A DNA stretch of 32,000 nt from Candidatus Lokiarchaeum ossiferum (GTDB taxonomy: Archaea; Asgardarchaeota; Lokiarchaeia; Sigyniarchaeales; Promethearchaeaceae), in assembly GCA_025839675.1 (NCBI GenBank), contig CP104013.1:60001-92000 (forward strand). The letters run 5' to 3'. The notes under the pieces were generated by a model that worked only from the letters and a program-made list of their open reading frames with translations, was not told the DNA's origin and did no database searches. The position numbers and the translations under genes were made by a program. Below, piece by piece: positions 844-10,703 of the stretch. Positions within the stretch are counted from its first letter, which is position 1. Each line of letters starts with the position of its first letter.

Positions 844-1302
844 TTAAAAATATTTTTCCATTAGAAGGTCTTTGAAATAATCAAAAATAGAAAGATCCCC
901 CACCCATGATCCAATAATTTGACCAAATTCAGTGTGAAACGTTTTTTGTATCTTTTGGAGCGTTTTCCGAACTGTTTTATCTCGGTTATTGATGTGAGTA
1001 CGCCCCACAAGAATAAATTCATTGGATTTTTCCAATTTTGGCATAATCATGATTTTGGAATCATGCATTTTTATCGCATTTAGGGAGTGGTTTGCTGTGA
1101 ATTCCATAGCTGTTATCATTCCAGAAAATAATGCGGGATCAACAGATTGCTTGTTAGGAAACGCGGGATTTTTTATATGGAGAAGCGGGGCTCCTGCATT
1201 ACTGATTATCCAGATTTCCATTAGTTTTGAAGTCATCCTATTCTCCGATCTTAATATAAAACGTAGCTTATTTAACTTTGTTTGGGTAAATAAAGATTCC
1301 AT
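844..1302 (-). CDS. Stand-alone roadblock/longin-superfamily protein, putative GTPase partner
   Basis: 152 aa. The predicted beta-beta-alpha-beta-beta-beta-alpha layout runs MEIWIISNAGAPLLH ... DPALFSGMITAMEFTAN ... KIMIMPKLEKSNEFILVGRTH ... RKTLQKIQKTFHTEF. It starts 29 nt downstream of the GTPase stop on the same strand. The true start could be an internal Met (MTSKL or MEIWII). Confidence 0.6.
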   Translation of the reverse strand: MESLFTQTKLNKLRFILRSENRMTSKLMEIWIISNAGAPLLHIKNPAFPNKQSVDPALFSGMITAMEFTANHSLNAIKMHDSKIMIMPKLEKSNEFILVGRTHINNRDKTVRKTLQKIQKTFHTEFGQIIGSWVGDLSIFDYFKDLLMEKYF

Positions 1303-1331
1303 TTCATTAATAATTATTCTTCTCCAAGGCT

Positions 1332-2342
1332 CTATTTTATATCTTCAGTGCGTAATACCCCTAATCGGATTATTTCTGAATTTCTTAAAATCAGTTTCAA
1401 TTTGTCAGTAAATATTTCAATGATTTCTGATAATCGTTCTCGTTCACTCAGCGATTTTGTTAAATCAATCCCCACAGTAAAGTAAAACGAAAACTTTGCA
1501 CTTCCGACAGAAATATCAAATTTTGTTGTGTTAATCTGCAAACTTTCCGTAGTTTTCGCATAATTTCCCTGGAGACTTCCCTCTATATAGATCTTTTGGT
1601 ATATCTGAATTAAAGACTGATTGATTTTTTTTAACGCTTCGGGCGAAGCATAATAATTTCCTATTTCAAAATCATTAACAAATAAAATCCCGAAATTCAA
1701 TTGATTGTCCAGACAAAATGCTTTAATGGTGCGACACAAAGTTTCGTATAAATTGGGATTTCTTAATAACGGTTGAGCAAAACTGGAGATGATACTAAAG
1801 GGATTATAGATTGAAGTATGAAAAATACTTGGAGTGATATCCAAAGACTGGATTGTAGGCAAGGTACCTTGAATAAACTCTTGCTCATTTCGAATCAACC
1901 TTGATTTATCTTCGTATTTTGTATCATATTTGTGGAAAAAAAGGTAAATTTTTAAATTTGGATTGAACTGATAGGCAATTTCTAATGATTTTAAGAAATA
2001 TGCCATACTTTGGCGAATTTTTGCAGATTCTTGCACATCAATTATGTAGTAGAGATATTTTATCCCCCGAAAATATTTCTGAGGTTGCCGCAGATAATTA
2101 TTCCGATATCTTTCTTGCCCGCCAAAATCCCAAATAACAAGCTGTCGTCCTAAAAATGAAATATCGGAACGATCTACCCCCTTGGTTGGGGCCAAGACCA
2201 TCAATGCTTCAAATTCATACAAAATGGTTTTGACCAAAGAAGTTTTTCCCGCATTGGCTAATCCTAAAATTGCGATTTTTTGAACTGAATTTAGTTCATC
2301 TTCAATTATTTTATTCAGTTCCTCTTTCACAAATTTATACAT
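1332..2342 (-). CDS. Rag/Gtr-family small GTPase with C-terminal roadblock domain
   Basis: 336 aa. P-loop GLANAGKTS, switch II WDFGGQE, and G4 as HKYD (Rag/Gtr use HKxD instead of NKxD). These are followed by IFHTSIYNPFSIISSFAQPLLRN, which parallels RagA [25 protein letters not shown], and then about 150 aa of roadblock-like C-terminal domain. A strong SD (AGGAGGA, 2351..2357) precedes the ATG. Confidence 0.85.
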   Translation of the reverse strand: MYKFVKEELNKIIEDELNSVQKIAILGLANAGKTSLVKTILYEFEALMVLAPTKGVDRSDISFLGRQLVIWDFGGQERYRNNYLRQPQKYFRGIKYLYYIIDVQESAKIRQSMAYFLKSLEIAYQFNPNLKIYLFFHKYDTKYEDKSRLIRNEQEFIQGTLPTIQSLDITPSIFHTSIYNPFSIISSFAQPLLRNPNLYETLCRTIKAFCLDNQLNFGILFVNDFEIGNYYASPEALKKINQSLIQIYQKIYIEGSLQGNYAKTTESLQINTTKFDISVGSAKFSFYFTVGIDLTKSLSERERLSEIIEIFTDKLKLILRNSEIIRLGVLRTEDIK

Positions 2343-2606
2343 TGGATTATTCCTCCTACCATGTTTGTCTGCTTTTCAGATACAAACTATCGCCAACAAT
2401 TCAATTTAATTCCTTCTTCCTATTTACTTTTTGATTTTGGAAAAAGCCTTATAAAATTTACAACCGAATTTAATCACTTCTCGAGTTTATAGAAATTATC
2501 AATCAGAATATACAAATGCTTAAGATAGATCAAAGCGCAATTTATAATTATAGCAAGTGATTTGAACAAATCAATTGATCTTGAGTAAATAACAAATAAT
2601 ACCACA

Positions 2607-4348: not shown

Positions 4349-4552
4349 TTAAGATTTTTGGGCGTGGCACCAATTTTCTTTACACGTGCGTGAGCAGAAT
4401 TTGTGTTCTGGAGGGTCTTGTCCAATATTTTTATGGATTACATGTCGTTTTGGAAGAGGCTTGCTGCACCAGTCACATTTTCGAATCTTTTTCAAAGATT
4501 CAGGTAATTTGATATCAATAAAAGAATCTGACATATTTTGTTTATATGTCAC
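4349..4552 (-). CDS. Small TRASH/FCS-type zinc-ribbon protein
   Basis: 67 aa. CDWC-x23-FCSRTC gives a C-x2-C ... C-x3-C spacing close to TRASH/FCS (L24e-like) zinc ribbons. Confidence 0.55.
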   Translation of the reverse strand: MTYKQNMSDSFIDIKLPESLKKIRKCDWCSKPLPKRHVIHKNIGQDPPEHKFCSRTCKENWCHAQKS

Positions 4553-4929
4553 ATTCGCCTTAAATATATCGATTTATAAAATCTCTTAAACTGTGAAAGT
4601 TTAAAACCATTTTTCGAAATTTTGAAAATAAAATTCAATATTGAAGATATTTGGGGAGAATTTTAAATACTCAATTAATTTCAGAATTAGTATCTTGTTT
4701 AAAAAGGCATTTTTTATGTAAAACTATGGTAAAATGTCCAAACGCTTTTTTCAGATGATATTCTTATATATTTCAAATTTTCTCACTCAAATTTAACTTT
4801 TTTATTCAAAATAAGAGCAAAAAAGATTATAAGATTATTTTAAATGAAAAAACAATATGGTCAATACCTCAACTTTGGAAGGATCGAATTTATTATTCCA
4901 AAAGGCCAAGAAGACATTATACAAAAAAA

Positions 4930-5601
4930 ATGAACAAGAATATGGTCAAGAAACTCATTCGGGGGATAATGAAAACATTAATCACAATTATTTCCATAGG
5001 CGCATTATTAACTTCATTTATTGGCGGAATATCCATATTTCAAGTGATATCAACTCCAGATTCCATCGATATTGATCCAGATAGTGCCGATATGAACTTA
5101 GGTGTATTAGGGAATAGTTTCTCGATTGATATGTCCTTTAATAATGAACGAGGGTATTATACTTTCGATAATTTTACCATTTCTGTTAGCATTGAATTAC
5201 GAGCAAAAGAGAGTAATGTGAATATATCCTATATGGATCAAATTTTATACCAAGAGGATTTAGCGGCTGGGCAGGATTATACTATTGCCTTAATCGCGGA
5301 AGAAGATGATTTTTCAACAGAAAACTTTCTGCTTCAAAATAACAACTCGTGGTATGATCCAGAAGTGGCGCTTTATTTAAATAATGCAACAATTAATGAA
5401 ACGGCGGAGATACAAACGTTAAGTTATCCCTACTTATTGTGGCATTATGATGTGGCCTTATCTATTCAAATTGTCTCATCTTATAATTTGGGTTTGGTCG
5501 ACTTTGGGCTTTCTATCGAATATATTGCTGACTATTATCAATATTTTACCCAAGATTATCCTACAATGAAAGAAAATATCATGACGAGTTATGGAATTTA
5601 A
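4930..5601 (+). CDS. Hypothetical N-terminally membrane-anchored extracytoplasmic protein
   Basis: 223 aa. A basic N-terminus and one TM helix (TLITIISIGALLTSFIGGISIF) precede an acidic ectodomain with several N-x-S/T sequons (NFT, NIS, NNS, NAT, NET). First gene of a tightly packed 4-gene cluster. Confidence 0.55.
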   Translation: MNKNMVKKLIRGIMKTLITIISIGALLTSFIGGISIFQVISTPDSIDIDPDSADMNLGVLGNSFSIDMSFNNERGYYTFDNFTISVSIELRAKESNVNISYMDQILYQEDLAAGQDYTIALIAEEDDFSTENFLLQNNNSWYDPEVALYLNNATINETAEIQTLSYPYLLWHYDVALSIQIVSSYNLGLVDFGLSIEYIADYYQYFTQDYPTMKENIMTSYGI

Positions 5602-6217
5602 AAAGTGCATTACTGTGAATCCGCGATTAAAAAATTTGCTAAAGGGATTAATGTCTGGAAGTTGGAATTGGGTGGTAAAAATTACAATCCCAATTTTCAT
5701 ATTCAATTATCTGATGCAACTAAGCATTATGGGTGTCCAACTATATACCGAAGAGAAAGTATCTCTAATCACGTATTGGATTATCGCTTTTGGCTTAATT
5801 TCAACTGCTTTGGCTGTTTTTATTGCCAGTTCACCCAAAAATTCGATCCGTCATGCAATTGGGGGCTTACTACTTTTGTTTGTTAATGGTTTTTATCTTT
5901 ATGTCTACAAATTTTCAGGGGCGGTGGATTTTCAAAATATAGTAATTAACTTAGGGCCAGACACCTCTGCGACTTTTTCCTTGAATTTAGACCCGATGAT
6001 ATATCTGAACATGGGTGTTATAGGATTGAATTTTCTGGTGGCTTTATGGGATCTTTTAATCGCTTTCCTATCACCTATTGAAGAAAAAGAAAAAACCAGA
6101 AGTGAACAAGGTTTAAACCATATTTCAAACACCCCTCTTCAAAAAAAAGAGAAAATGCGCTTAACTGAAAAAGACCGGGGGATGGAACAGAACGATGTTG
6201 ACGCATATTCATTTTAA
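5591..6217 (+). CDS. Hypothetical polytopic membrane protein (about 4 TM) with a charged C-terminal tail
   Basis: 208 aa with four hydrophobic helices. It overlaps the upstream gene by 11 nt. An alternative start at 5651 (MSGSWNW) is possible. Confidence 0.5.
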   Translation: MEFKKCITVNPRLKNLLKGLMSGSWNWVVKITIPIFIFNYLMQLSIMGVQLYTEEKVSLITYWIIAFGLISTALAVFIASSPKNSIRHAIGGLLLLFVNGFYLYVYKFSGAVDFQNIVINLGPDTSATFSLNLDPMIYLNMGVIGLNFLVALWDLLIAFLSPIEEKEKTRSEQGLNHISNTPLQKKEKMRLTEKDRGMEQNDVDAYSF

Positions 6218-6241
6218 CCAACCAGGAGGAAAATAAATCAA

Positions 6242-6532
6242 ATGCTACCTACAAATGTAGAAAATTTATTAAACACGTTAAGTGTTTACATTGCTAAAAT
6301 CTTACTTATTTTAATCCCATTTATGGGAATAGTTCTTCCAATTGTGACAGCCTTTGGTAAAGTGATTCGTGCGTATGTTGAACCATTCTATGAATTTTTA
6401 CCTCAAAATCCTAATTTTTTCCAGTTTAATACAAATTGGATATATGTGATTCTAGGGGGTTTAATCCTAATTTGTGGATTGGTGGTAAATTTAGTATGGC
6501 CAGAAAGATCAAAAAGAAAAAATTCAAAGTGA
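6242..6532 (+). CDS. Hypothetical small membrane protein (2 TM)
   Basis: 96 aa with two long hydrophobic helices. AGGAGG at 6224..6229 lies 12 nt upstream of the ATG. It ends in TGA, so TGA is a normal stop in this genome. Confidence 0.55.
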   Translation: MLPTNVENLLNTLSVYIAKILLILIPFMGIVLPIVTAFGKVIRAYVEPFYEFLPQNPNFFQFNTNWIYVILGGLILICGLVVNLVWPERSKRKNSK

Positions 6533-6556
6533 AGAAAAAACTTAAGTTACCTAGAA

Positions 6557-7051
6557 ATGAGAGTAATTGTTAAATTTAAAACCATTCTTAATTTGGTCTG
6601 GGGGACACCGATCAATGGTCGGGAGGCTTTTGCATTTGTTCGTGGATTTCCTGCGACTTTTTTCTTAACTGAAAGGCGAGCTATAGTCGTTGGAGAGTTT
6701 ACAGAGAAAGTGGGATGGTTCAAACCAAAAAAAATGCATCGGATCATTTTTGAAGCCGGGCTCCATAAATTAAAGGAGTTTAACATTAGCATTATTCCCG
6801 AAAAACGAATTTTTGCGGGTTTTATCAGTTTTCACCCTCATAATCAAGTTGGGGAAAATGCCACCATTCAATTTTTAAAAATGCGCCCAGAAATTGGGAA
6901 AGTGATCGAAGATCATCTTTCAAATCTTGAAATTCGAAATCCTGCCGAAGATTCTGGCATCGTTATGGTGGACGCAACAGCTATTCCACCACAGCGTTGG
7001 TTAAATAAAAGATTTGGCAAAAAAGATGGAACCCCAAAGATTTTGTATTAA
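6557..7051 (+). CDS. Hypothetical soluble protein, last gene of the 4-gene cluster
   Basis: 164 aa. It lies 24 nt after the previous gene. No family recognised. Confidence 0.45.
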   Translation: MRVIVKFKTILNLVWGTPINGREAFAFVRGFPATFFLTERRAIVVGEFTEKVGWFKPKKMHRIIFEAGLHKLKEFNISIIPEKRIFAGFISFHPHNQVGENATIQFLKMRPEIGKVIEDHLSNLEIRNPAEDSGIVMVDATAIPPQRWLNKRFGKKDGTPKILY

Positions 7052-7056
7052 TTTTT

Positions 7057-10023
7057 TTAATCTTCTTCCTCAAAAGGAACCCGAATAATTACCATTAAGG
7101 ATTTGATTTCATGAGGTTTCATGGGAAATTGGATCGAATTTTCATCCACCATCATTTTAGAATTGTTTATTCCATTATTCTGTATACGTTCCAAGAGATC
7201 CACTTCAAAGACTTTTGTTATGTTCACAAATTCTGGTAAGGAAAGTGTGCAAGATGTTTGAATTCCTCTAAATTCAACACATCTGACTATAACTGCAATT
7301 TCATACATACTTGGATTATAGAACCAATCCGGTGCTGCTCGCATGAATTCTTCGATCTCTTTCACTGTAGTGATTATCACATTTGGTTGATTGAGTTTGA
7401 AAAATGAGATTTTGTCATGGCTTGCATTCGTTGGGGCATAAATCATTGGAAAATTGTATTCATAGGCTTGTTTTAACACATTTAATTCATCGATTTCAGG
7501 TTCCACACATTCAATTGCCCATGGGATCCGATGAAATCCGTGATCTGTGTATTTCGATCTTTGCTCGTGATCAGAATCTAAACGAACAAACTTTGAATCG
7601 GGGGTCTGTAATTTTGGAGCCCGAAGTAAGGAAAGAGACACGGTATCTTCAGAAATCCCTAAACCATATTTTCCTTGTGAATACAAAACGAGATTTTTTT
7701 GGGTTTCATTCTCGAGTTTTTGAGTATAGCAGAGGGCAAATTGTTGGAAAGACATCTCAATCGGCAACTGGTGTCTTGTGGTCAAATCATTGAAGCTTTG
7801 ATGTTCAATTGAATAGGGTTTTCCGAAGGCAAATTTTTGAAATTTCTGAACACTATTGATTTCTAGTTTGAGGAACTTATTCTTTTCTCTCCAATCTACT
7901 AAGGTTTCACCGTAAATTTTCTTTTCTTTGCGATAAATACTAATTCGAGAGTGAAATCGGGAGCCATCTTTACTTTTATTATACTTAATAAGAATTGTGT
8001 GTCGAAGGGGGCCTCTTTCTTCAATTTCTATACTTTCCAAAGCAGGGAATTCGTTTTGTACAAGATAGTGACTTGGATCAATATGTATTGGATCTGAAAG
8101 CGATGGTTTTTCATGATAAAGTGTATGTTGGATCCCTTTTTCCCCTAATAAGTTGGTTTCTTGGTCATCATAACTTAAATGAGTGATGATCCCAGAATTA
8201 GCATCAATTTTGATTGTAATTAATTGTGAATTGAAAATATATTCTTCATTTTTAAGCTTAAATTTTTGGTTTGTTTCTTGGGTATGGGAAGGGGATTTTA
8301 AGAAAATTGTGTTCTCTAGGCCATAAGATTCAATATATGAACTTGGAGGGTGATAAATTAAAAGATAGTCTTTTGGAAGATTCTCAAACTCAAGTAATTC
8401 ATCCTTATCAGGAGACACGGTAGGGAGGAGCTTTTGGGATTCAAAACTTAATTCTTCAATTTCCTGAATTAATTTTGCATTTGAAACCAGAAAATTTTGT
8501 CCTGGGACGTCTTTTACACCTAATTGCATTTCACGATTGGATAAATAGGGGGAAAAAGAAACTTTTTGAACAAAAAGGGGTTTATTCTGATGATCTAAGG
8601 CATTATTATATGTTTTTCTATACACTGTTGAAAATCCATGACGTTTCCACCCCAATGGATTAAAAAGAGTATAAAGGTCATGTTTTATCTTTTTCTTGAG
8701 AAAATGCGCTGCATTCATTATTGCATTTTCTTGACCACTTGATAAATGAGAAATTACTTGGTGATAACTTTCGGCAGCATCTCTTATAACTTCGCAGATG
8801 GAATTACCGCCAATTATTTCTCTGTATTGATGCTTAAGGACTAATTGCCAATCTCGTTGAATTTCATCTTGAAAATGTTCTCGACCCAAGATTCCTGAAA
8901 TTGCAGATAGCGCTTCTGTTTGATGTAATAACACCTCAGAAGTGTGATTATTTTCTTTCATCATACCTGCTGTAGTATAAATTCCTGAGTTTCGATGGAA
9001 TAATATTGCATCACCCCACGTTGGAATTCTATTGTGATGAGAATGCAATTTTTCAAAGTGTTTCTTAAAAGACACATTTTCAACCAGTTTCGCCTGCTCC
9101 CAAAGCATCTTCTCCATTATTTCGAAAGGAAGGGGGCCAAATTTTGTATTTGGTGCGCCATAAGGATTGATTATTGCTGGTATCACTTCGTTCGACAGGT
9201 TGTTCTGAATTGTTTCATTAGAGGTTGTCCGGTTAAATGAAATGCTTCTTTCTGGTTGAAGAAAATAATTTCGGTCTTTTATTTTGGATAAAAAATTAGA
9301 ATATTTTAGAGCACTTTGAGCCGAAACCGCAATCGATGTGTGATCATGAGCTGTCCACATGAAATTTACAAACGGAAATGGGAATTCGCCCTTATTCTTA
9401 TCCTTAGGATCATCTAATACATTAATAAAAGCAGATTTTATTCCACTTTTCGACATTATTTGGGCTAGGATGTGAGGTAACTCCGAATAGCAATCAAACC
9501 ATGCTACTTCTGCTAATTGGCTAAATTTAGCGGCAATGAAACGTTGACCATAGAGTTTTTGTCTAATGAGTGATTCACCATCAATGCAGCTTGCATCATA
9601 ATTAACCAAATCCCCACCTATAATATTCCATTTACCTTCTTGTACTTGCGTTTGGATTTCCTGTAAAGTTTCTGGAAAATCTTTCTTTAACCATTGATAA
9701 GGGATAGTAGAAGGTAGTGTGCATGATAAAGTTTCAAAATTATAGGCTTCCATATTATAAATTGCTCTCGCAATGATGGGTTCTGAAATTTTTTCTCTAC
9801 AATCCGACAAGCGCCATTTTCCAGCAAGATTTAATGAGATTATTCCACTATAAGTAAGTTTTGGGCTCTTAATTTTCTCGAGTTGATTCAAAGGATCGTA
9901 TAATTTGGCGATTTTTTTGAATTTCCATTTGTACATATTTACAAGGACTTGTGAATGTTTCTTAAATAGTCCATCAATCATTATTTTTTCCAGAAAGGTT
10001 TTTTTTTTTGCCCAATCAACCAT
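7057..10023 (-). CDS. GH38 alpha-mannosidase-family protein (cytoplasmic type), with apparently degenerate metal-binding motifs
   Basis: 988 aa. GKWNIIGGDLVNYDASCIDGESLIRQKLYGQRF matches the GH38 core G.WE.vGGmWvE.D.N.psGESLvRQ.l.G.rf. FHRNSGIYTTAG matches HRGtYTS. No signal peptide. Confidence 0.8.
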   Translation of the reverse strand: MVDWAKKKTFLEKIMIDGLFKKHSQVLVNMYKWKFKKIAKLYDPLNQLEKIKSPKLTYSGIISLNLAGKWRLSDCREKISEPIIARAIYNMEAYNFETLSCTLPSTIPYQWLKKDFPETLQEIQTQVQEGKWNIIGGDLVNYDASCIDGESLIRQKLYGQRFIAAKFSQLAEVAWFDCYSELPHILAQIMSKSGIKSAFINVLDDPKDKNKGEFPFPFVNFMWTAHDHTSIAVSAQSALKYSNFLSKIKDRNYFLQPERSISFNRTTSNETIQNNLSNEVIPAIINPYGAPNTKFGPLPFEIMEKMLWEQAKLVENVSFKKHFEKLHSHHNRIPTWGDAILFHRNSGIYTTAGMMKENNHTSEVLLHQTEALSAISGILGREHFQDEIQRDWQLVLKHQYREIIGGNSICEVIRDAAESYHQVISHLSSGQENAIMNAAHFLKKKIKHDLYTLFNPLGWKRHGFSTVYRKTYNNALDHQNKPLFVQKVSFSPYLSNREMQLGVKDVPGQNFLVSNAKLIQEIEELSFESQKLLPTVSPDKDELLEFENLPKDYLLIYHPPSSYIESYGLENTIFLKSPSHTQETNQKFKLKNEEYIFNSQLITIKIDANSGIITHLSYDDQETNLLGEKGIQHTLYHEKPSLSDPIHIDPSHYLVQNEFPALESIEIEERGPLRHTILIKYNKSKDGSRFHSRISIYRKEKKIYGETLVDWREKNKFLKLEINSVQKFQKFAFGKPYSIEHQSFNDLTTRHQLPIEMSFQQFALCYTQKLENETQKNLVLYSQGKYGLGISEDTVSLSLLRAPKLQTPDSKFVRLDSDHEQRSKYTDHGFHRIPWAIECVEPEIDELNVLKQAYEYNFPMIYAPTNASHDKISFFKLNQPNVIITTVKEIEEFMRAAPDWFYNPSMYEIAVIVRCVEFRGIQTSCTLSLPEFVNITKVFEVDLLERIQNNGINNSKMMVDENSIQFPMKPHEIKSLMVIIRVPFEEED

Positions 10024-10196
10024 TTTTTTTTCCTCTAGAGATTAATCCAATGTTATACTTGGGAAACGGAATGTTAATAATCTTGTTGTCTTATGAGAGA
10101 AATTCTCAAAATTATTAAAAGTCTAAAAAACCAAGGGGCTACTTCAATTAAAAAATTCGATTCCATAATATATTTCTATACAAGTAGTGTGATTTG

Positions 10197-10703
10197 ATGA
10201 CTGAATCTACAGAATATGTTCAATTATTGCAAAATTATTATGGAGATTTTTTTGAACCTTTGAATTGGGAAACTGCCAACAAAAAGTGTCGGAACTTCTT
10301 TGCCAAGATTACAAAAGGAAAAAAAACCATATTCAATCGGAAATTTATCAATTCTTCTTCTTTGGATGATCGAGTTGTTTTTAATCAAAAACATTTTCCC
10401 GCTGGAGAAATAATTGAGCAAAAATCTACTTTTATTAAAGGAACTAAACAGGAAACAACATTTCATGGATTTTTTATCGTACATTTAAAAGAAAATGGTA
10501 TTTACGGGGAAAAAATTTCTCAAAAGGATGCCTTAGAATTTTTTGATTTGAAACAAAAACTTCCCGAACTCCAAAGTAACGAGAAAAACAATTTACGCGT
10601 TAAATTAGGGACTGTTGTTAGGAAATTAACTTCAAAATATGGAGAAGCAATGATTTCTGAAGTTTTAACCGATATCTTAGAAGAATATTTTCCTAATGTT
10701 TAA
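10197..10703 (+). CDS. Hypothetical protein
   Basis: The ORF track starts at TTG 10194, and the ATG is at 10197. It lies between the two glycosidase genes, 39 nt upstream of the GH2 gene. No family recognised. Confidence 0.45.
   Translation: MTESTEYVQLLQNYYGDFFEPLNWETANKKCRNFFAKITKGKKTIFNRKFINSSSLDDRVVFNQKHFPAGEIIEQKSTFIKGTKQETTFHGFFIVHLKENGIYGEKISQKDALEFFDLKQKLPELQSNEKNNLRVKLGTVVRKLTSKYGEAMISEVLTDILEEYFPNV

Follow-up and report, generated by a model that had tools for sequence, protein, structure and literature searches.

Does this stretch of a Lokiarchaeal genome encode, in two neighboring genes, a Rag-type GTPase together with a protein that acts on it? The stretch in question (hereafter the window) comprises 32,000 nucleotides of Candidatus Lokiarchaeum ossiferum, positions 60,001 to 92,000 of GenBank contig CP104013.1, and the locus occupies its positions 844 to 2,342, where an open reading frame (ORF) of 336 aa and a smaller one of 152 aa (844..1302) lie on the same, minus, strand. 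An initial annotation, made from the sequence alone, had read the two as an operon encoding a Rag/Gtr-like GTPase and a roadblock/longin protein, a minimal prokaryotic version of the platform on which eukaryotic Rag GTPases dock. Both ORFs are genuine genes, each with clear homologs, which their source records label Promethearchaeota (Lokiarchaeia). We find that the first encodes a Rag/Gtr-family GTPase with a fused roadblock domain and the second a stand-alone longin, that the two are adjacent in close relatives only, and that the locus is a testable GTPase-regulator candidate and not a conserved mini-Ragulator.

A Rag/Gtr-family GTPase and a stand-alone longin

The 336-aa protein is a Rag/Gtr-family GTPase with a fused roadblock C-terminal domain (CTD), as had been proposed. 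Residues 22-210 match the Pfam family Gtr1_RagA at 6.9e-26 (91.5 bits, with a cut-off of 22), well above Arf at 52.8 bits. Among PDB sequences the ranking is headed by 8zla and 9m28 (1.3e-86, residues 19-335, CTD included), followed by 8yl2 (3.5e-33), human RagA (5e-19), Gtr1, RagC and Gtr2, and after these by Arl3 (1e-9); MglA, against which the G domain was also to be checked, is not among the 60 best PDB sequence matches listed. The motifs G1 (GLANAGKTS), switch-I T53 and G3 (WDFGGQ) are intact. The two Rag hallmarks singled out in the initial annotation hold across 51 homologs: FHKYD of G4 (residues 136-140) aligns with RagA HKMD, with K138 and D140 invariant and H137 nearly so, and TSIY of G5 (residues 176-179) aligns with RagA TSIW, with T176 invariant and S177 and I178 nearly so.

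The AlphaFold2 (AF2) model, built from a 51-sequence alignment (predicted local distance difference test, pLDDT, 80.8), shows a helix at the N-terminus (residues 2-19), a Ras-like G domain (about 20-195) and a CTD (about 198-320) with helix 198-212, strands 217-222 and 225-231, helix 234-254, strands 259-264, 268-279 and 282-293, and helix 298-320, that is, the α-β-β-α-β-β-β-α order of a roadblock domain. Its top Foldseek matches are again 8zla and 9m28, at template-modeling (TM) scores of 0.69-0.76 and a root-mean-square deviation (rmsd) of about 4.4 Å in 318 columns; 8yl2 comes next, then full-length RagA/C and Gtr1/2. The rmsd to the eukaryotic Rag/Gtr chains is 13-14 Å, so that the individual domains match and their mutual orientation differs. 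By their PDB titles, 8zla and 9m28 are a [quoted passage not shown] and 8yl2 is a “homotetrameric RagA-like ... LokiRagO”. Our literature search found no paper on 8ZLA/LokiRagM, so that the PDB title is the source of the word “monomeric”. Given this title of the nearest solved relative, and the full-length superposition of the model on LokiRagM and not on Rag/Gtr dimers, dimerization through the CTD is not to be assumed.

We placed the GTPase among its approximately 50 closest homologs by a neighbor-joining (NJ) tree that is a rough guide only. One sub-clade holds the window protein, P0006, P0007 and P0038 (336 aa); a second is the LokiRagM clade, with proteins of 371-446 aa that carry a C-terminal extension, from MK-D1, Harpocratesius and others; and a third holds P0008, P0010 and P0011 (343-367 aa). 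The MK-D1 gene (L007:5974-7125) matches 8zla along its whole length at an E-value of 3.9e-254, and on this match we take the two to be the same protein. Among Rag/Gtr GTPases, the window protein is a new, short-form representative of the LokiRagM-like branch. Its N-terminal helix MYKFVKEELNKIIEDELNSV (window 2285-2342, residues 1-19) is a conserved feature of the short-form clades (window, P0008, P0010, P0038 and P0040) that the LokiRagM clade lacks; it seems amphipathic and yet net acidic, and so bears no resemblance to an obvious Arf-like membrane anchor. A metagenome scan with the alignment of the window-clade GTPases, the first such scan, returned no relatives.

The smaller gene had been taken as 152 aa long and as beginning 29 nt downstream of the GTPase, and neither figure survives. 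All four close homologs of its product start at the equivalent of M23; the ATG of L001 (an 87%-identical relative) that corresponds to the upstream ATG of the window leads into an in-frame TAG; and a GGAG lies 7-10 nt 5' of the ATG at 1236. The gene product is therefore 130 aa long, and a spacer of 95 nt separates the two genes (L093 has 93 nt); the 152-aa start, which represents the longest ORF only, was rejected. The 130-aa form is also found on a 6,274,825-bp contig, and the exact GTPase sequence on a 6,035,313-bp contig.

Taken alone, the small protein has no match in Pfam, NCBIfam or PDB sequences. Its relatives numbered 4 (later 14) by a word-index search and 119 by an exhaustive profile search, 22 of the latter at E≤1e-10. 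Pfam assigns Fuz_longin_1, the first longin domain of FUZ/MON1/HPS1, to 24 of the 79 relatives that were aligned (best 1.8e-8), Intu_longin_1 to seven of the 79 and Robl_LC7 to a single one (0.0044), while the profile of the family finds MON1 (0.0044) and Bet5 (0.02) in the PDB. The AF2 model (pLDDT 89.4, predicted TM score 0.83) has strands at residues 5-12 and 17-22, a helix at 34-47, strands at 54-56, 60-64 and 74-81, and helices at 86-108 and 115-129, and this β-β-α-β-β-β-α-α order is the longin topology. Foldseek returns a mixture of LAMTOR2/3, Bet5/TRAPPC, Mon1/Ccz1, AP σ, Sec22b and MglB at TM 0.5-0.67, with LAMTOR2/3 at 0.59-0.67, and does not discriminate longin from roadblock here. 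It is the topology of the protein and the sequence profiles of its family that make it a longin and not a roadblock: a single-domain longin of the MON1/FUZ/TRAPP-like kind and a new member of an Asgard longin family.

The small gene is also not a copy of the GTPase CTD, since hhalign gives the longin family and the CTD a probability of 0.3%. The shared strand and the membership in the longin/roadblock superfamily thus stand as first described, and the roadblock fold does not; a LAMTOR-like roadblock was rejected on the longin topology and the Fuz, Intu, MON1 and Bet5 affinities. With a longin of MON1/FUZ/TRAPP-like affinities as the neighbor in place of a LAMTOR-like roadblock, the docking of Rags on Ragulator is the wrong analog for this locus, and the proposed minimal Ragulator-like platform makes a weak analogy.

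Range of the adjacency and the proposed role of the longin

Longin and roadblock platforms bind the switch face of small GTPases as guanine nucleotide exchange factors (GEFs; Mon1-Ccz1/Rab7, TRAPP/Rab1), as GTPase-activating proteins (GAPs; FLCN-FNIP/RagC, GATOR1, MglB/MglA) or as effectors (SRX-SRβ). Because longin and roadblock domains are general GTPase platforms (PMC3747258), the best single model for the longin, to which we would give a probability of about 0.4, is that it is a direct regulator or effector of the neighboring Rag-like GTPase. The longin, probably as a dimer, would bind the switch face of the G domain and act there either to regulate its nucleotide state, in GEF-like or GAP-like fashion, or as an effector of the GTP state. 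The data establish what the two proteins are and how they fold, how their genes are arranged and how narrowly the adjacency is distributed; the physical interaction and its direction (GEF, GAP or effector) are what we infer.

The same-strand adjacency is kept in three lineages, namely the window, L001/L002 (GTPase 87% and longin 88% identical) and L093 (73% and 74%). The neighboring JAB-like, oxoacid-dehydrogenase-like and zinc-ribbon genes of L001 are 96-98% identical to those of the window, so that the GTPase and the longin are comparatively fast-evolving, and at matched rates. A looser linkage is seen in Harpocratesius (L012) and L008, where a longin ortholog (43-48% identity) lies 3-5 kb upstream of a LokiRagM-clade GTPase (44%) with M42 peptidases and a methyltransferase in between, and with no other synteny with the window; the two share gene order and amount to about one independent observation. 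At the level of families, linkage was counted in 80 Asgard GTDB loci retrieved with the GTPase profile. In six of the 80, a longin-family member is fused to a Rag/Arf-like G domain (L036 and L080 only) or is encoded no more than about 1.1 kb from such a domain (L020, L064, L071 and L074). Fusions of longin with GTPase and of GTPase with roadblock have been published for Asgards (PMC10933270; 10.1101/2020.10.19.343400; PMC4917890). In a Rosetta-stone test of the longin family, the fusion partners in its longer proteins proved to be TPR or V4R domains and not GTPases.

We regard it as about as likely that the two genes are unpartnered neighbors, with the longin serving other GTPases or another process, a recent lineage-specific rearrangement having brought the genes together, and separate promoters driving them. 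The shared strand and short spacer kept in three lineages speak against this, as do the renewed, loose linkage in L012 and L008 and the recurrence of longin-family fusion or adjacency with Rag/Arf-like GTPases across Asgards. The remaining comparisons, gathered in this and the next four paragraphs, weigh against a regulator or effector role or in favor of unpartnered neighbors. Adjacency is found only at identities of at least 73%, among close relatives in which synteny alone would already predict it. The initial annotation had looked to conservation of the pair in related genomes, and this is for the most part not what the relatives show: the genes are not adjacent in L003, L004, L006-L012, L088, L091 and L094-L098, and the pair is not kept beyond close relatives.

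The GTPases, where they occur elsewhere, have other neighbors. P0038 (locus L091; 43% identity, sister to the window clade) derives from the same sequencing run (SRR22273277) as a window-identical contig and would most simply be a paralog in the same organism; its gene is followed by a convergent amidohydrolase and by no longin. P0008 (51%; from a sample shared with P0006) is followed by ZnuA and P0010 (47%) by a convergent phosphoenolpyruvate carboxykinase, with no longin within 6 kb in either case. For MK-D1 LokiRagM and another four genes of the same clade (L006, L009-L011), flanks of up to 6 kb per side contain no match to the longin family.

A paralogous block is shared by the window (4349-10703) and L091 (1220-7011) in the same order and relative orientation, with identities of 57% for p169, 27% for the GH38 α-mannosidase, 61% for p164, 71% for a 67-aa zinc-ribbon protein (znr67) and 43% for the Rag-like GTPase. 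Neither p164 nor p169, which are kept with both GTPase paralogs, has a Pfam or PDB sequence match. The GTPase is thus linked to znr67, p164, GH38 and p169 in both copies, and to the longin in the window copy only, a point in favor of unpartnered neighbors.

The longins likewise occur in other settings. In L088 (583-2195), a JAB gene 90% identical to that of the window is the immediate neighbor of a 52%-identical longin, and both the GTPase and the oxoacid-dehydrogenase-like gene are missing between them, an arrangement that implies the gain or loss of about 2.3 kb together with fast divergence or paralogy of the longin. The metagenomic longin orthologs L094-L098 (38-45%) are preceded by another conserved gene, for a protein of about 150 aa, three of these five loci have a second longin paralog nearby in divergent orientation, and no GTPase is present on these short contigs. 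The marine-metagenome protein of about 150 aa (e.g., L096 258-1902) is itself highly conserved, with the motif ...LIRLKEFSPDLVKGISDVLKKFNL..GTIHTTGLCFE...

Genome content and the spacer point the same way. Asgard genomes hold dozens of longins and small GTPases each (PMC4917890), so that chance adjacency is not rare, and the GTPases of MK-D1 generally lie outside operons with roadblock or longin genes (Tran et al., PMC10933270). In an alignment of the window, L001 and L093, the spacer conserves a block AAAGTTAAATA at about -43..-33 from the longin ATG that resembles a B recognition element (BRE) and TATA box, a T4-T5 run at about -25 and the GGAG at -10..-7, and diverges elsewhere. The block and the T-run make a promoter of the longin's own possible, or the spacer may hold a terminator, and co-transcription of the GTPase and the longin is putative.

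That the longin is a dedicated partner of a monomeric Rag-like GTPase, either completing the CTD as a longin-roadblock pseudo-dimer or acting as a GEF or GAP, strikes us as improbable. The pseudo-dimer would amount to a modified mini Rag-Ragulator platform, in which the longin and the roadblock CTD of the monomeric GTPase associate by β-sheet edge and helix packing, and in which the mixed pair scaffolds or localizes the GTPase and leaves the nucleotide pocket untouched. The CTD is a genuine roadblock domain, it might lack a homodimer partner if the title of the nearest solved relative is taken at its word, and Foldseek puts the small protein about as near to LAMTOR2/3 as to true longins. We nonetheless hold this platform to be unlikely, for the topology and profiles of the small protein are those of a longin, the hhalign comparison with the CTD is null, the pairing is not conserved for other LokiRagM-like proteins with the same CTD, and neither a LAMTOR1-like tether nor another roadblock protein is encoded nearby. 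Known platforms, moreover, pair like with like, longin with longin or roadblock with roadblock, and we know of no precedent for a longin-roadblock heterodimer; the docking model also fits poorly with a nearest solved relative that is titled monomeric.

Alternatively, the longin might be a GAP of the FLCN/NPRL2 type that contributes an arginine finger to the Rag-like GTPase, comparable to FLCN acting on RagC and GATOR1 on RagA, though of the possibilities raised here we find this one the hardest to credit. The cognate GAPs of eukaryotic Rags are longin proteins, and one class of Asgard longins has the same GP motif and arginine finger (PMC12290439). A candidate finger may be seen in R79 at the end of β5, which is Arg in 43 of the 79 family members and has a conserved basic patch (K85/K87/K91) alongside. 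The GAP-type signature of FLCN, NPRL2 and SMCR8, however, is a contiguous GP motif before β2 together with the arginine finger (PMC12290439), and in place of the contiguous motif the family has G15-Φ-P17, with G15 in 78 of the 79, a hydrophobic position 16 (A16 in the window) and P17 in 37 of the 79 and missing from several close orthologs. This G-x-P turn between β1 and β2 resembles the “GKP” of MON1. No member among the 79 matches Pfam Folliculin or NPR2/NPR3, and the 50 best Foldseek matches include no FLCN, FNIP or NPRL chain. For want of a contiguous GP motif, assignment of the family to the GAP-type longins (FLCN, NPRL2, SMCR8/C9orf72) was rejected.

The regulator or effector model brings us to what the locus offers. 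The families are not new, as was recognized from the outset: Asgard Rag/Gtr-like GTPases with fused roadblock domains, abundant stand-alone Asgard longins and crystal structures of two Lokiarchaeal Rag-like proteins are already known. Asgard GTPases and longin or roadblock proteins can almost never be matched from genome layout (PMC10933270), and a same-strand Rag-like/longin pair is for this reason a cheap and concrete candidate for biochemistry. If the partnership is a dedicated one, no Rag-longin module would have been seen paired in a prokaryotic genome before this one, and it would bear on the matching of Asgard longins to the GTPases they serve (PMC12290439; PMC10933270). If the proteins interact, the regulatory logic of Rag and longin would be older than eukaryotes; if they do not, the locus holds two ordinary Asgard signature genes that are neighbors by happenstance.

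Setting of the two genes

The coordinates of the two genes and of the features around them are collected in the table.

Features of the locus and its flank in the window, with the basis of each assignment
Feature	Coordinates	Strand	Basis
Stand-alone longin-domain protein, 130 aa	844..1236	−	homolog starts, AF2 topology, family profiles
95-nt spacer, GTPase stop to longin start	1237..1331	−	sequence reading and alignment with L001, L093
Rag/Gtr-family GTPase, 336 aa	1332..2342	−	Pfam, PDB sequence search, AF2 model, Foldseek
Divergent intergenic region 5' of GTPase	2343..2606	.	sequence reading and comparison of relatives
2-oxoacid dehydrogenase-like protein, 311 aa	2607-3542	+	partial acyltransferase domain
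JAB/MPN-like protein, 152 aa	3723-4181	+	weak matches (Prok-JAB 0.007)

The region upstream of the GTPase has an AGGAGG 9 nt 5' of the ATG and, at about -118..-75, the conserved blocks TTTTATAA and AAAAAGTAAATAG, the latter of which resembles the block in the spacer. The 311-aa protein encoded divergently from the GTPase matches the C-terminal part only of the 2-oxoacid dehydrogenase acyltransferase catalytic domain (1.7e-12). The window has a GC content of about 32-38%, and its remaining genes are those of ordinary metabolism: GH38 and GH2 glycosidases, methionyl-tRNA synthetase, isocitrate dehydrogenase, ATP-citrate lyase and aconitase. The host Lokiarchaeon is, we presume, growing in enrichment culture.

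Comparison with known systems

The window GTPase resembles RagA-D and Gtr1-Gtr2 in its Gtr1_RagA family membership, the HKxD of its G4, the TSI(W/Y) of its G5 and its roadblock CTD, and differs from them in the orientation of its domains. As regards Rag/Gtr with Ragulator or EGO, the window gives no sign of a heterodimeric partner GTPase, and the protein encoded beside the GTPase is a longin and not a roadblock of the LAMTOR type (LAMTOR2-5, Ego2-3). The window ORFs scanned include no LAMTOR1/Ego1-like tether and no roadblock/LC7 Pfam match, and profile hidden Markov models of the longin family, the G domain and the Rag CTD find no further match within the window.

A prokaryotic precedent for the gene arrangement exists in MglA-MglB, where the gene of a small GTPase likewise lies beside that of a small regulator of the roadblock/longin superfamily, and MglB is among the Foldseek matches of the window longin at a TM score of about 0.5. 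In that system a single operon encodes the GTPase and a roadblock GAP. The window GTPase is Rag-like and not MglA-like, however, and its neighbor has the longin and not the roadblock topology; mglBA is, furthermore, broadly conserved and the window pair is not.

The longin regulators offer a further comparison, that is, the tri-longin GEFs Mon1-Ccz1 and FUZ-INTU, Bet5/Trs23 of TRAPP, and SRX of SRα with SRβ. The window longin shares with them the longin fold and a place beside a small GTPase, here in the sense of neighboring genes, and its relatives carry the Fuz, Intu, MON1 and Bet5 affinities. It differs in being a single domain of 130 aa that itself falls below Pfam detection, and neither additional longin domains nor a partner subunit is encoded nearby.

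The nearest relative of the window GTPase is LokiRagM of Promethearchaeum syntrophicum MK-D1 (8zla, GDP form; 9m28, GTP form). The gene of LokiRagM and those of its orthologs (L006-L012) are always followed by a same-strand gene of about 470 aa, which in MK-D1 (L007 7171-8604) combines a match to the IFT52 GIFT domain (7.5e-17) with a long coiled coil; this pair of genes is more widely conserved than the GTPase-longin pair of the window. The locus of P0010 has a second Arf/Gtr1-like GTPase of 363 aa (L004 8365-9456), separated by about 2.3 kb from the LokiRagM-like gene and downstream of it, which recalls the operonic Rag-like pair reported in MK-D1 by Tran et al. 2024 (PMC10933270).

LokiRagM and the window GTPase share the architecture of G domain and roadblock CTD, a full-length similarity of about 44-50% identity, and the HKxD and TSI motifs that are conserved family-wide. 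The window protein, on the other hand, belongs to a separate NJ sub-clade, is shorter than the LokiRagM clade for lack of the C-terminal extension, and has a 21-residue N-terminal helix in place of the approximately 10 residues that precede the P-loop in the LokiRagM clade, and its downstream gene encodes a longin instead of the approximately 470-aa protein. In 8zla and 9m28 a close structural template for the GTPase is already at hand.

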